A DNA stretch of 64,000 bases from Escherichia phage LHE83. The notes beneath the pieces were generated by a model. It had not been told where the DNA came from. It did no database searches and saw only the letters and a program-made list of their open reading frames with translations. The translations under genes and the position numbers were made by a program. Where the stretch lies: the sequence record OQ561750; one strand, 5' to 3'. The first letter of the stretch is position 1. Every line of letters starts with the position of its first letter. Shown piece by piece: positions 1,469 through 44,103 of the stretch.

Positions 1469-1768
1469 ATGAAAACTTATCAAGAATTTATCACAGAAGC
1501 CAAAGCTCCTAAAGCATTTCAAATTGGAGTTCAAGGCAATTTAGACCAAGAATATGTTGATGCTATTGTAGCAAGCCTCGGTAAACAGGGCGTACAAGTC
1601 GATTTTGTTGATTTTACCAAAGGTAATACTTTTAATATTGTTACATCTAAAGGTTCTTTAGCTAAAGTTAAAAAGGCCTTTGGCGTAGCACAAGCATATG
1701 AAATCGACCACTCCGAATTAGAAAATAAAGGTCGCCAGAACACAATTAGAGGTTCTGGTTCTTTCTAA
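1469..1768 (+). CDS. ipI: internal protein IPI-like (T4 IPI inhibits GmrSD-type restriction)
   Basis: MKTYQEFITEA capsid-targeting motif; 99 aa; CTATCAAC/AAGGA cassette upstream. Confidence 0.7.
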   Translation: MKTYQEFITEAKAPKAFQIGVQGNLDQEYVDAIVASLGKQGVQVDFVDFTKGNTFNIVTSKGSLAKVKKAFGVAQAYEIDHSELENKGRQNTIRGSGSF

Positions 1769-6072: not shown

Positions 6073-6351
6073 ATGGACCTAAATTCAAAGATTTTAATTC
6101 TAGCGTTCGCTGTGGCTATTTCTTATATTGTTCTTTCGCCTATCATGGATGATGTGGCTTACAAAAGAGAGATAGAGGTTGTAGCAGCGACGTATAATGC
6201 TAATAATAAAGAGTGTCCTAATAAAAATGGGATGGATTTAATTAAAGCGCATTATATGCTTTCCATTACCTCGCCTATACAGAGGAATTGGGTTGAATAT
6301 AATTTTAACGACGTGTTCTATTCTTATTGTCGTAAGCTTAAAAAGCTATAA
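6073..6351 (+). CDS. hypothetical membrane protein
   Basis: ORF track; N-terminal transmembrane segment. Confidence 0.5.
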   Translation: MDLNSKILILAFAVAISYIVLSPIMDDVAYKREIEVVAATYNANNKECPNKNGMDLIKAHYMLSITSPIQRNWVEYNFNDVFYSYCRKLKKL

Positions 6352-22114: not shown

Positions 22115-22172
22115 TAACGTGGACAGGCGGCTAATGAAAGACGAATACGAAAAAGTTTAAGAGGTTGTATGA

Positions 22173-22346
22173 ATGACGAATTCGATGGATTTTGATAAGA
22201 TTAAATCTGACAAAAATGAGATGATACTTCAATTTGAAGCCGCTCGTATTAAAGCAGAAAATGAAGGTACTATTACCTATAAGCCTATCAAGTTCAGGTC
22301 TTCTCACGAACCTCTGTACGGTGTATTGGTTGGTAAAGGAGCTTAG
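22173..22346 (+). CDS. hypothetical small protein (57 aa)
   Basis: Read by eye; AGAGG Shine-Dalgarno; stop codon sits in the terminator hairpin loop. Confidence 0.3.
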   Translation: MTNSMDFDKIKSDKNEMILQFEAARIKAENEGTITYKPIKFRSSHEPLYGVLVGKGA

Positions 22347-22358
22347 GCTCCTTTTTTG
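22336..22358 (+). terminator. rho-independent terminator
   Basis: AGGAGC-TTAG-GCTCCT followed by TTTTTT. Confidence 0.6.
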
Positions 22359-22400
22359 CTTTATATTTGGATGATAAAATGAACCAACTGAGGAGAACAT

Positions 22401-22544
22401 ATGGAACTACTTTTAGGATATGTCGTGTTATTCATGGCATTCTACACATTCACACGAGCTTGTTGGATAGGATTCTTTTCCACTCCTGACGGGTTCATTT
22501 CAATAATTTTATTTTGCATTGCAATAACGGCGCTTGGCTTATGA
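22401..22544 (+). CDS. hypothetical small membrane protein (47 aa)
   Basis: Read by eye; CTGAGGAGAACATATG Shine-Dalgarno; hydrophobic; ATGA overlap with the gene 47 start. Confidence 0.4.
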   Translation: MELLLGYVVLFMAFYTFTRACWIGFFSTPDGFISIILFCIAITALGL

Positions 22545-41607: not shown

Positions 41608-41773
41608 GATTTCTGTATTCGAGTTATTCGAAGAATATGAAATCATATCAAAAGACCAAGAAGCTATCCATATTATTGCTGATGATGGTGTGACTTGGAT
41701 TATTCCACTTTACCACGAAGATACCTATGAAGTCACTGATGCAAATGGTGATAAAGCTATTTTCGTAATATAA
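41582..41773 (+). CDS. hypothetical protein
   Basis: Internal ATG after AGGGAA Shine-Dalgarno of track ORF 41564. Confidence 0.4.
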   Translation: MSAMCTGSKISVFELFEEYEIISKDQEAIHIIADDGVTWIIPLYHEDTYEVTDANGDKAIFVI

Positions 41774-41776
41774 ATA
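41769..41776 (+). promoter_or_regulatory. late promoter TATAAATA
   Basis: Exact T4 late consensus, 14 nt upstream of AGGAG and a small ORF. Confidence 0.4.
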
Positions 41777-41789
41777 AGGCCAGGAGCCT

Positions 41790-41951
41790 ATGAAATCTTT
41801 TAAAGAAGTTATGAACGAAGATATGGTCGCAGGCGATGCAGGTGGTAATCCTACTGCTATTGCCTCCGGAACTACCTCAGGCGCAGTCGTCAATAAAGGG
41901 CCTGAACAAATCCCATCTAAAAAGCGTAAAGAAAAATCCGAAAACGAATGA
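41790..41951 (+). CDS. hypothetical small Gly/Ala-rich protein (53 aa)
   Basis: Read by eye; AGGAG Shine-Dalgarno; below the track length cutoff. Confidence 0.4.
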   Translation: MKSFKEVMNEDMVAGDAGGNPTAIASGTTSGAVVNKGPEQIPSKKRKEKSENE

Positions 41952-41989
41952 TATAATGGCTCTATTAATTTAGAGCCTAAGGAAAAATA

Positions 41990-43018
41990 ATGTCATATGT
42001 CGATAGAGAATTTGCTGTACGTGCCTTGAATTACCAACCTAAATTCAGACAAGTAACTGGTAGTGATTTTAAATTAAACTGTCGTTGTCGTGTATGTGGC
42101 GACTCCCAAAAAGATGAGAACAAAGCTCGTTTTTGGGCCTATCCGGCTAATGACGGCTCCGTAATGCTGCACTGTTTTAACTGTGACTATTCAGCAGGAA
42201 TTAAGAAGTATCTATACGAATATGAGCCTGATTTATATCGCGAATATATTCTTGAGAAACATAAAGAGCAATCGTTCGGGAGACAAGCGGCACCTAAGGT
42301 GGAGATATCAGAAAAGATTAAAGCCAAGATGCCTGTCATCGAAAAGCTTAATTTCTGTGAACGTCTGGATAGAATGCCAAACGACCATCCTATTATCAAA
42401 TATGTAACACTACGTTGCATTCCTGAAAACAAATGGAATCGGCTGTGGTTTACTAAAGAATGGCCTGCATTAGTTAACTCTGTCAATCCAGGGACCTATT
42501 CTAAAGAAATGCCTGAGCCTCGTTTGGTTATTCCTATTTTCAATAAGGATAAACAAATAGAAAGTTTTCAAGGTCGAGCCTTGCGTAAAGATGCTCCACA
42601 AAAATATATTACAATAAAGGCTCATGACCAAGCTACAAAAATATATGGAATGGATACAGTTGACGAACGTCAGTTGGTGTGGGTAATGGAAGGTCCTATT
42701 GATTCATTATTCGTACCGAATGCAATAGCAATTACTGGCGGGTCGTTGGACTTGGCTATGGTTCCATGTAAAGAAACTCGTGCCTGGGTAATGGACAATG
42801 AACCCCGCCATCCCGACACAATTAAGCGTATGCAACGATTAGTTGATGCTGGCGAAAGGGTTCTATTCTGGGACAAGGCTCCATGGCCTTCTAAAGATAT
42901 AAATGATATGATTATGAAAGATAAAGCTGATATAAATGATGTACTGGCATATATGAAAGCTAATATAGCCCAAGGTCTAATGGCTAAAATGAGACTTTCA
43001 AAATATTCTAAAATTTAG
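41990..43018 (+). CDS. 61: DNA primase gp61
   Basis: 342 aa; Zn-ribbon CRCRVCGDS...CFNCDY; TOPRIM; C-terminal QGLMAKMRLSKYSKI as T4 gp61. Confidence 0.9.
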   Translation: MSYVDREFAVRALNYQPKFRQVTGSDFKLNCRCRVCGDSQKDENKARFWAYPANDGSVMLHCFNCDYSAGIKKYLYEYEPDLYREYILEKHKEQSFGRQAAPKVEISEKIKAKMPVIEKLNFCERLDRMPNDHPIIKYVTLRCIPENKWNRLWFTKEWPALVNSVNPGTYSKEMPEPRLVIPIFNKDKQIESFQGRALRKDAPQKYITIKAHDQATKIYGMDTVDERQLVWVMEGPIDSLFVPNAIAITGGSLDLAMVPCKETRAWVMDNEPRHPDTIKRMQRLVDAGERVLFWDKAPWPSKDINDMIMKDKADINDVLAYMKANIAQGLMAKMRLSKYSKI

Positions 43019-43215
43019 GCAGGAACTCCGCTAAAGAATCCAATTATGCTTAATACGTGTTCCATTGTAACCGCTGGTAAAATTATCCCTTGGCTAGCGG
43101 CTACAGGGACTACTAGAAGATTCCAAAGGAATACGTCTAGCGCAAGAAAACCTAACATCATTTTCTTGTCTTTCTTTTCGGCCAATTTCCAGATTTGGTA
43201 AAAAATACTGCCCAT
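43015..43215 (-). CDS. hypothetical small membrane protein (antisense to the early-gene direction)
   Basis: ATG preceded by AGGAGG with a 5-nt spacer on the minus strand; lies in a 288-bp + strand coding gap between 61 and 56; hydrophobic. Confidence 0.4.
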   Translation of the reverse strand: MGSIFYQIWKLAEKKDKKMMLGFLALDVFLWNLLVVPVAASQGIILPAVTMEHVLSIIGFFSGVPA

Positions 43216-43306
43216 GTTATCCTCCTGTTAAATTAATATTTATTCGCTTTAATCTAACAGTTTATAATTATCTAACTTACTAATGAATTGAAAAGGAAAA
43301 AATATA

Positions 43307-43828
43307 ATGGCACACTTTAACGAATGCTCACAACTTATTGCTGGTGTTGATAAAGCTGAGGAAGCTTATTTTAATGCTCTGATTCACGAAGATAAAGACC
43401 CTCTGCAGGTTATGCTTGATATGCAGAAATCATTACAGGTCCGTTTGGCTAAAGATAAACCTGAATATAACCGTCATCCTGATGACTTGGCTACTGCAGG
43501 TGAAGTTGTTGATTGGTTGCGCAATCAGAAAGATTATATTGATGATGAATTCCGCGAACTTCTGACTTCTCTTGGTGGCATGAGCAATGGCGAAAAAGAT
43601 GCGAGCGCTGTATGGAAGCCTTGGAAAGCTCAACATGCTGAACGTCGTGAAACCCTGATTAACGATTTGTCTCCTGAAGACCAGCTCGAAATTAAATTCG
43701 AAATGATTGATATTCTGCACTTTGTTCTGAATATGTTCCAAGGTCTTGGACTGACTGCTGAAGAAATCTTTAAACTGTATTACCTGAAAAATGCCGAGAA
43801 CTTTGCTCGCCAGGACCGAGGTTATTAA
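43307..43828 (+). CDS. 56: dCTPase/dUTPase gp56
   Basis: MAHFNECSQLIAGVDKAEE...DPLQVMLDMQ...EIFKLYYLKNAENFARQDRGY near-identical to T4 gp56 from memory. Confidence 0.9.
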   Translation: MAHFNECSQLIAGVDKAEEAYFNALIHEDKDPLQVMLDMQKSLQVRLAKDKPEYNRHPDDLATAGEVVDWLRNQKDYIDDEFRELLTSLGGMSNGEKDASAVWKPWKAQHAERRETLINDLSPEDQLEIKFEMIDILHFVLNMFQGLGLTAEEIFKLYYLKNAENFARQDRGY

Positions 43829-43830
43829 GT

Positions 43831-43838
43831 TATAAATA
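43831..43838 (+). promoter_or_regulatory. late promoter TATAAATA upstream of soc
   Basis: Exact late consensus about 30 nt upstream of the soc ATG. Confidence 0.55.
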
Positions 43839-43869
43839 CACCTGTAATTAAACAACAAAGGAGTTAATT

Positions 43870-44103
43870 ATGGGTGGTTTCGTTAATATTAAAACCTTTA
43901 CGCATCCGGCTGGTGAAGGTAAAGAAGTTAAAGGTGTTGAAGTATCTGTCCCGTTTGAAATCTATTCAAACGAGCATCGTATTGCGAATGCACACTATCA
44001 GACATTTCCTTCTGAAAAGGCGGCATACACTACTGTAGTAACTGATGCAGCCGATTGGCGAACTAAGAACGCGGCGATGTTTACGCCTACCCCAGTAGTT
44101 TAA
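43870..44103 (+). CDS. soc: small outer capsid protein Soc
   Basis: 77 aa; VNIKTF...AHYQTFPSEKAAY as T4 Soc; late promoter upstream. Confidence 0.85.
   Translation: MGGFVNIKTFTHPAGEGKEVKGVEVSVPFEIYSNEHRIANAHYQTFPSEKAAYTTVVTDAADWRTKNAAMFTPTPVV

Follow-up and report, generated by a model that had tools for sequence, protein, structure and literature searches.

A 66-codon open reading frame (ORF) lies on the minus strand between genes 61 and 56 in a 64,000-nt stretch of DNA from Escherichia phage LHE83 (OQ561750; the whole stretch is referred to as the window). Based on comparative sequence analysis, we conclude that this ORF is a genuine, selectively maintained gene of the Tevenvirinae (hereafter the small gene) and that it probably encodes a late-expressed, holin-derived mini membrane protein that may modulate the envelope or lysis. 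The ORF had been singled out in an earlier note, made from the letters of the window, as a gene for a small membrane protein. Its existence was already known, in that the nearest relatives carry it as a hypothetical protein and PHROG includes it. As far as we found, there is no earlier description of the late-promoter evidence, of the gene being universal yet missing from the T4 annotation, or of its origin in a holin core; the literature on T4 ribosome profiling and unannotated ORFs, on late antisense transcription and under names such as 61.-1 or dam.-1 yielded nothing on the small gene.

Conservation of the ORF between genes 61 and 56

The window protein (MGSIFYQIWKLAEKKDKKMMLGFLALDVFLWNLLVVPVAASQGIILPAVTMEHVLSIIGFFSGVPA) matched PHROG 2024, a family with no assigned function, with residues 1-64 on positions 1-64 of the 65-position profile (E 5.8e-28), and the same profile was matched by all 35 aligned relatives. 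By tblastn, the window protein (representing what we call type B) was found in 138 phage records at identities from 100% down to about 30%, and the T4-like form (type A) in 698 phage records (Tequatrovirus, Mosigvirus-like and others); at the protein level, homologs could be traced to identities of about 25%. A homolog adjoins gene 61 tail to tail in some 800 Tevenvirinae genomes. All copies examined, from Dhakavirus, Klebsiella T4-like phages, Kanagawavirus (from Enterobacter, Kosakonia and Edwardsiella), Moonvirus (Citrobacter), Gaprivervirus, Gelderlandvirus (Salmonella) and Tequatrovirus, were located at the same place in the same orientation: convergent with gene 61, abutting it and running against the surrounding early genes. 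The stop codons of the two genes overlap in most genomes, by 4 nt in the window. The full-length match, and a location and orientation beside gene 61 that it shares with the family, make the window gene a member of PHROG 2024, from which it shows no difference.

The small ORF stays abutted to gene 61 despite inserts that enter or leave the 61-56 interval. Such inserts include dam in T4, mobE in IME08, a homing endonuclease in Kosakonia phage 305, and, in a Klebsiella phage, an insert that splits the NTP-pyrophosphatase gene.

Substitutions are distributed as in a coding sequence. None of 17 diverse copies contained an internal stop, and no other frame was open in every copy. Among nine 66-codon copies, the variable columns at codon positions 1, 2 and 3 numbered 26, 15 and 57. 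Divergent pairs showed saturated pS (0.8-0.96) with pN of 0.13-0.21, and close pairs gave dN/dS of 0.09-0.15. The earlier note had named conservation among relatives as a check on the ORF; position, frame and protein sequence are all kept across Tevenvirinae genera. Purifying selection, conserved synteny and membership of PHROG 2024 thus identify it as a real gene.

These data effectively refute the idea of a chance open frame in a regulatory spacer that is kept for its promoter, terminator or origin sequences. Promoter-like elements on both strands of the spacer, a TransTermHP-based annotation that puts a terminator inside the 5' end of the ORF in one relative, and the lack of an ORF annotation in the JS98, JS10 and T4 reference records would suit such a frame. 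However, this is the only frame open in all 17 copies, most change falls on third positions at low dN/dS, and members at 25-35% identity are recovered with the protein profile from phages whose flanking regions are unrelated. Furthermore, no Rfam family match and no terminator was found for the window copy: an Rfam scan of the whole window gave nothing at gathering thresholds (a spurious snoRNA match fell in the gap), and a terminator scan of 42500-43900 gave none. Because the latter scan was empty, there is no evidence that the ORF region serves as the terminator of gene 61.

In the window, the ORF (43015..43215) starts with ATG and has the coordinates and length previously given. The gap between the end of gene 61 (43018) and the start of gene 56 (43307) is 288 bp as described, and AGGAGG is indeed well placed ahead of the ATG (Table 1). 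A strong Shine-Dalgarno sequence (GGAGG or AGGAGG) precedes each homolog examined. The plus strand of the gap, which had been taken to be without an ORF, holds one of 51 aa at 43046..43201. We regard this ORF as incidental because its frame is broken in relatives (1-5 stops; longest ORF 0 to 51 aa); it shares wobble positions with the minus-strand ORF.

In a megablast comparison, the segment 42000-44200 aligned along its entire length with Escherichia phage QL01 (98.8% identity); identities of 93-97% were obtained with WG01, JS98 and other Dhakavirus members (Tevenvirinae). These matches place the source of the window in Dhakavirus as a JS98/QL01-like T4-type phage. Early and middle genes run along the plus strand, in the local order sp, 61.1, 61, gap, 56, soc, mrh.2. 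Screening the 64-kb window, we found no other credible minus-strand ORF outside the plus-strand genes, in agreement with the view that this is the only plausible gene on that strand. In the first 50 kb of QL01, 92 of 93 annotated features are on one strand, and the exception is AVT32_gp028, the small gene. Minus-strand ORFs at 22131..22400 and 41648..41893 were rejected as genes, since they overlap small plus-strand genes or are without support. The region 22115..22513 appears as a 399-bp gap in the map of ORFs of at least 60 aa, and it is occupied by small plus-strand ORFs (one of 57 aa and a hydrophobic one of 47 aa); it contains a MotA-box-like site at 22358, and its 89-aa minus-strand ORF is not credible.

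A putative late promoter upstream of the small gene

The minus strand ahead of the small-gene ATG reads ...gcgAATAAATAttaatttaacAGGAGGataacATG and contains AATAAATA, a T4-type late promoter motif whose last base is 21 nt ahead of the start codon. The T4 late consensus TATAAATA spans -13 to -6, with A or T frequent at -13 among T4-like phages (Nolan et al., PMC1524935). Measured against this description of late genes, AATAAATA is a motif of the TATAAATA type with A at -13. The ATAAATA inside it, located 22-28 nt upstream of the ATG, is the sole occurrence of this word on the minus strand in 64 kb; on the plus strand, ATAAATA occurs 6 times, including within TATAAATA before soc. The full consensus TATAAATA is under-represented in the window (3 observed vs 6.4 expected), and all its occurrences are on the plus strand, one before soc and one before 61.1. 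Late-promoter words in the window include those at 6347, 41769 and 43831 on the plus strand and that at 43244 on the minus strand.

An equivalent motif was found 20-29 nt upstream of the ATG in relatives, with TAAATA kept across genera. At the homolog site, Q7622, Klebsiella phage Biddle and Kosakonia phage 305 carry TATAAATA; VR25, ECML-359 and PEi26 carry CATAAATA; T4 carries GATAAATA; and SA21RB carries AATAAATA. Kanagawa-, Klebsiella-, Gapriver- and Tequatrovirus homologs show TATAAATA or NATAAATA at the same place. In total, T4 and six other lineages keep the motif in position, and the small gene is oriented like the late genes of T4-type genomes. Because the motif is unique on the minus strand, its position is conserved and A at -13 is documented, we infer a gp55-type late promoter at 43244..43237, from which transcription would begin near 43231 and give a leader of about 16 nt. 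The earlier note had supposed that the gene would need a late or middle promoter of its own, and the conserved motif points to the former.

A middle-promoter-like site on the plus strand stands back-to-back with the late motif, 1 nt away from it (Table 1). Given this arrangement, the 91-bp spacer appears to hold divergent middle and late promoters. The MotA-box/TATAAT pattern is enriched in the window, with 23 occurrences where 10 +/- 3 would be expected; most of them are on the plus strand. The T4 annotation gives the gene-56 middle transcript as the oriA primer, so the 61-56 spacer may be origin-proximal.

On the minus strand, no intrinsic terminator was detected after the small ORF within gene 61, so a late transcript of the small gene could, judging from the sequence, run antisense to the primase message. 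The next hairpin on this strand beyond the ORF is a 7-bp one (GGCTCTA / TAGAGCC, 41958..41977) in the 38-nt spacer between 61.1 and 61, just past the 5' end of gene 61. In the Moon record, a terminator is annotated at the equivalent place on the strand of the small gene. The hairpin could end the late antisense transcript or regulate gene 61.

The RNA itself might then be what is selected, with a late antisense transcript through gene 61 shutting down the primase late in infection and the ORF being secondary. The overlap of the two stop codons, the open path through gene 61 and the site of the next hairpin would all agree with this explanation. We nevertheless consider it highly improbable: amino-acid motifs are invariant across lineages with saturated synonymous sites, which argues for selection at the protein level, and the prophage homologs described below are without a downstream primase gene. 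Antisense action on gene 61 may at most come in addition, as it cannot account for the protein-level selection.

Table 1. Positions of the small gene, its neighbours, its predicted expression signals and selected homologs
Feature	Position	Strand	Remarks
Small-gene coding sequence, 66 aa	43015..43215	-	ATG start; PHROG 2024 member, type B paralog; N-terminus MGSIFYQIWK...
Shine-Dalgarno sequence AGGAGG	43226..43221	-	followed by 5 nt (ataac), then ATG
T4-type late promoter motif AATAAATA (putative)	43244..43237	-	7/8 matches to TATAAATA
Middle-promoter-like site (MotA box GCTTTA, 11 nt, TATAAT)	43246..43268	+	would serve gene 56, 39 nt upstream of it
Gene 61 (DNA primase)	41990..43018	+	convergent with the small gene
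Gene 56 (dCTPase)	43307..43828	+	divergent from the small gene
T4 copy (type A)	NC_000866.4 17738..17938 (= L010 3239..3439)	+	family motif; stop-stop overlap with gene 61; AGGAGG; GATAAATA
Tandem paralogs, Gapriverviruses	L005 1295..1492 and 1501..1701; L022 1295..1492 and 1559..1699; L034 901..1017		

Protein architecture and relationship to three-transmembrane holins

Across 35 aligned members, P37 never varies; W31, N32, L46 and P47 come close to invariance, and conservation at A39 and G43 is strong. Members begin with a basic stretch of 20 residues (net charge +2 to +7), which leads into a hydrophobic helix (residues about 15/19-41) with a Kyte-Doolittle value of at least 1.85 in all members. 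The product thus looks, as had been proposed, like a small membrane protein. The proposal of two transmembrane (TM) helices fared less well. One robust helix is present in every member; the C-terminal 20-25 residues, which contain prolines and one acidic residue, form a short segment with a Kyte-Doolittle value of 1.7-1.9 in the window protein vs 0.7-1.2 in other genera. AlphaFold2, run with a 20-sequence alignment (mean pLDDT 69, pTM 0.41), placed helices at 3-11, 15-41 and 51-62 and a loop at 42-50; the C-terminal helix comprises 12 residues. The protein can accordingly be pictured as N-in with one TM helix that is followed, at the periplasmic face, by an L-P(P) turn; the short C-terminal helix may then lie in the outer leaflet or dip back in. 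Within the W-N....P.A...G motif carried by the TM helix, A39xxxG43 forms a small-xxx-small motif, and such motifs serve helix-helix packing. Cleavage by signal peptidase at P37-x-A39, which would release a 25-aa periplasmic peptide, was considered and rejected, as no register had allowed -1/-3 residues family-wide; the excessive length of the hydrophobic core also speaks against it.

Pfam and NCBIfam scans of diverse members gave scattered sub-threshold matches (COX7B, SspI, MASE7), none of them significant. A Foldseek search of the AlphaFold2 model against BFVD returned family members and non-significant matches, three of which were named 'Holin of 3TMs'; the confidence of the model is too low for these to be given weight.

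A profile search that exhaustively covered 1.84 billion representative proteins yielded 16 clusters only. Outside T4-type phages, the profile of T4-like members reached prophage-type members at library-wide E-values of 1e-7 to 7e-4, and the most distant members (P0085, P0092, P0096 and others; 50-86 aa) matched PHROG 2024 at 1e-8 to 6e-11. The prophage-type members lie in contigs of temperate siphophages or prophages, downstream of the tail-tip J gene and near the recombinase/integrase end, and their neighbours include homing endonucleases and DUF3800, RelA_SpoT and DUF2188 genes. For one of them, a lysozyme gene lies on the opposite strand at a distance of about 500 bp.

Distant members connect the family to holins. 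Employing hmmscan, we found that several of them matched the C-terminal third of the profiles of PHROG 3427 'holin' (E 5e-4 and 2e-3) and PF11351 (GTA_holin_3TM; E 0.03). PF11351 is named for the holin rcc00556 of the R. capsulatus gene transfer agent (GTA), which lies beside the endolysin rcc00555 (PMC3423380, PMC5026251). We built a holin alignment from a bona fide PF11351 holin of phage DSL-LC05 (E 7.9e-22) and ten relatives, at 71-99% identity; an attempt at a broader PF11351 profile from genome contigs added three close relatives only. By hhalign, the prophage-type members matched this alignment with a probability of 94.8% (E 5e-8, score 45), as compared with scores of 10.1 +/- 2.3 and a maximum of 17 for column-shuffled controls. 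The T4-like members in turn matched the prophage-type members with a probability of 99.2% (E 8e-20). Aligned directly with the holins, the T4-like members alone scored 19.3 in the same register, a score that 1 of 100 shuffles reached, and the whole family gave E 1.4-1.7e-4 with a score reached by none of 100 shuffles.

The alignments pair W31 of the family with Y84 of the holin, N32 with Q85, P37 with P90, A39 with L92, G43 with G100, L46 with L106, P47 with P107 and E52 with E112. All these holin columns are invariant in the holin alignment; residue 52 of the family varies. P0096 and the holin also have in common a W-R-x3-G-W helix start with identical spacing. From these alignments, and with moderate confidence, we take the TM2-loop-TM3 core of three-TM holins to be the origin of PHROG 2024, with TM1, the linker and the charged tail having been lost.

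What is shared with the GTA-type holins is about 55 residues homologous to their C-terminal TM2-loop-TM3 portion, in which the order W/Y-N/Q-F...P...G...L-P-P...E is kept and the C-terminal core motif of PF11351 (Y-Q-F..Q-P ... G ... P-P-L-P ... E) is in register. Also, like them, the small gene would encode a small phage inner-membrane protein, and it has a late-type promoter motif. Unlike them, the small protein is less than half as long, contains only the region equivalent to holin residues about 67-126 of the three-segment architecture, has 4- and 3-residue deletions, and lacks TM1, the amphipathic linker and the charged C-terminal tail; its charge cluster is N-terminal. The best member scored 15.3 bits (E 0.03) against a PF11351 gathering threshold of 24.8 bits, and 3 of the 35 members gave weak matches. 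By the Pfam threshold and by architecture, PHROG 2024 is not a member of PF11351. Nor is the small gene adjacent to an endolysin gene in T4-type phages, whose genomes hold the unrelated holin T.

In two loci, a 94/95-aa protein with an N-terminal TM helix and a coiled coil accompanies the prophage-type member (L035 3580..3999, L041 4260..4544), and L035 additionally encodes a 40-aa hydrophobic peptide. These proteins and the peptide may be lysis or spanin-like components; they have no similarity to the N-terminal half of three-TM holins. A 'split holin', in which the 94/95-aa genes would supply that missing half, was rejected (hhalign E 0.3).

Possible roles, paralogs and annotation

In the mechanism that we favour, the small gene would be transcribed on its own from the gp55-type late promoter in the 61-56 spacer and translated efficiently from its strong Shine-Dalgarno sequence. 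The product would enter the inner membrane such that the lysine-rich N-terminus stays cytoplasmic, and, late in infection, it would oligomerise or bind a membrane partner via the W-N/P/small-xxx-small face. As a guess, it would thereby influence the envelope, for instance by affecting when lysis occurs or how robust it is. The likeliest role, again as a guess, is that of an accessory protein of the inner membrane that acts late on lysis or the envelope.

The lethal hole itself is probably made by another protein. In T4, holin T alone is required for membrane permeabilisation, so by analogy the small protein is unlikely to be the hole-former in T4-type phages. That it is an autonomous holin or pinholin permeabilising the inner membrane is, in our judgement, distinctly unlikely. 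The homology of the family to the membrane core of PF11351 holins, the prophage member near a lysozyme gene, a UniRef entry named 'Holin' and a late-promoter motif suited to lysis timing would accord with such an activity. They are opposed by the missing TM1 and charged C-terminal tail, a second segment too short for the bilayer in the model, sub-threshold Pfam scores and the absence of endolysin linkage in T4-type genomes. Moreover, t mutants of T4 neither lyse nor stop metabolising, and this is so in null mutants in which the small gene is intact.

The main rival to a role in lysis or envelope modulation is one in exclusion or defence: a superinfection-exclusion, envelope-protecting or anti-defence factor that alters or shields an inner-membrane component. 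We consider it unlikely on balance. It is favoured by the positions of the distant members, which sit after J, near the integrase/recombinase end and by DUF3800, RelA_SpoT and DUF2188 genes in temperate siphophages; exclusion and defence cargo typically sits at such 'moron' positions. By analogy, the small size, predicted N-in membrane topology and short periplasmic segment are also reminiscent of exclusion proteins. However, holins are the sole remote homology detectable, and the small gene has a late-type promoter motif, whereas the T4 exclusion genes imm and sp are early genes. There is also no sequence similarity to the phage's own Imm, as BLASTP of the window protein against the QL01 Imm homolog gave no alignment at E <= 100. 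T4 Imm, Sp, RI and RIII are alike in being small phage proteins at the envelope of T4-infected cells, and RI is additionally alike in its late expression and N-terminal hydrophobic anchor. They differ from the small gene product in genomic location, strand and motif set, and share no PHROG or Pfam family with it.

Several points weigh against a late, holin-derived modulator of lysis or the envelope. As to the promoter, Moon- and Gelderland-type copies carry only ATTAAATA, and the window motif is a 7/8 match to the consensus within an AT-rich spacer. As to the holin ancestry, the window protein itself has no match in Pfam or NCBIfam even at E <= 10, and the direct signal from T4-like members to holins is weak (probability 5%), so that the link depends on a transitive chain and a narrow holin alignment. 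The hydrophilic, charged C-terminus of holins is missing, and the C-terminus of the small protein is hydrophobic (…IIGFFSGVPA) with a net charge of -1. As to function, there is no endolysin linkage in the window or in the Tevenvirinae examined, where the flanks are primase and dCTPase genes. The context of the prophage members (post-tail-tip, at the prophage end, with defence-like neighbours) suits a superinfection-exclusion or 'moron' role at least equally. The lysis set of T4 (T, E, RI, RIII and the spanins) is complete, and t mutants fail to lyse, so a further lysis function is not needed for T4 biology. Finally, one paralog decays where two exist, which means that the second copy is dispensable.

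The paralogs are found in tandem in Gaprivervirus VR25, which has types A and B with the T4-type copy first and the Dhaka-type copy second. In SP18 and another Gaprivervirus-like contig, type B is frameshifted or truncated and type A is intact; this decay of the second copy in Gapriverviruses suggests redundancy and ongoing loss. Dhakavirus retains B alone, and T4 retains A alone. Because of the tandem in VR25, the decay of B elsewhere and the single copies in Dhakavirus and T4, we regard types A and B as old paralogs whose functions probably overlap.

In the T4 RefSeq record, an unannotated gap of 309 bp between 61 and dam holds the opposite-strand 66-codon homolog (protein MVQKLMALVNAIKGNKKRIAFTISTMVGILLWNFILSPVAIAHGVNIPVVTLDTFVDLAFALVGLI; one predicted tryptic peptide, IAFTISTMVGILLWNFILSPVAIAHGVNIPVVTLDTFVDLAFALVGLI, is very hydrophobic). 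The gene is without annotation in the T4 reference, in the 1984 record X01416 and in JS98 and JS10, and the exact sequence of the T4 copy has no NCBI protein accession in a collection of 15 billion proteins. Databases contain a protein identical to that of the window, labelled 'hypothetical protein', from QL01, WG01, E33 and others. PHROG 2024 lists as examples QL01 AVT32_gp028 / WG01_29, a VR7 gp033-like protein and RB32/RB68 'hypothetical protein'. Type A proteins are usually labelled 'hypothetical protein' and once 'putative membrane protein'; the UniRef entry named 'Holin' is a T4-type copy.

Few viruses are annotated as well as T4, whose lysis and lysis-inhibition system serves as a textbook model, yet this conserved small gene is missing from the reference annotation. 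The gene is under purifying selection in essentially all enteric T4-type phages, is duplicated in some and is related to a holin family. A phenotype, if found, would add a component to a supposedly complete T4 lysis pathway; without one, the gene still illustrates the truncation and reuse of holin modules. A more far-reaching proposal, which we hold to be doubtful, is that a universal, overlooked late gene of the Tevenvirinae, T4 included, encodes a holin-derived two-segment membrane protein that is an unrecognised player in T4 lysis, lysis inhibition or late envelope remodelling. It might, for example, tune the triggering of holin T or stabilise the energised membrane until lysis, and read-through from its promoter may also silence primase late.

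As regards annotation, the ORF should be called in T4, JS98 and JS10, and propagated mislabels should be corrected. Some records name the product 'dCTP pyrophosphatase', 'DNA packaging ATPase' or 'thymidylate synthase', labels that bleed over from neighbouring genes. The 61-56 interval and its flanks are an insertion hot spot, with inserts at L004 368..1129, L007 523..1173, L008 2677..3132 and L010 2347..3126.

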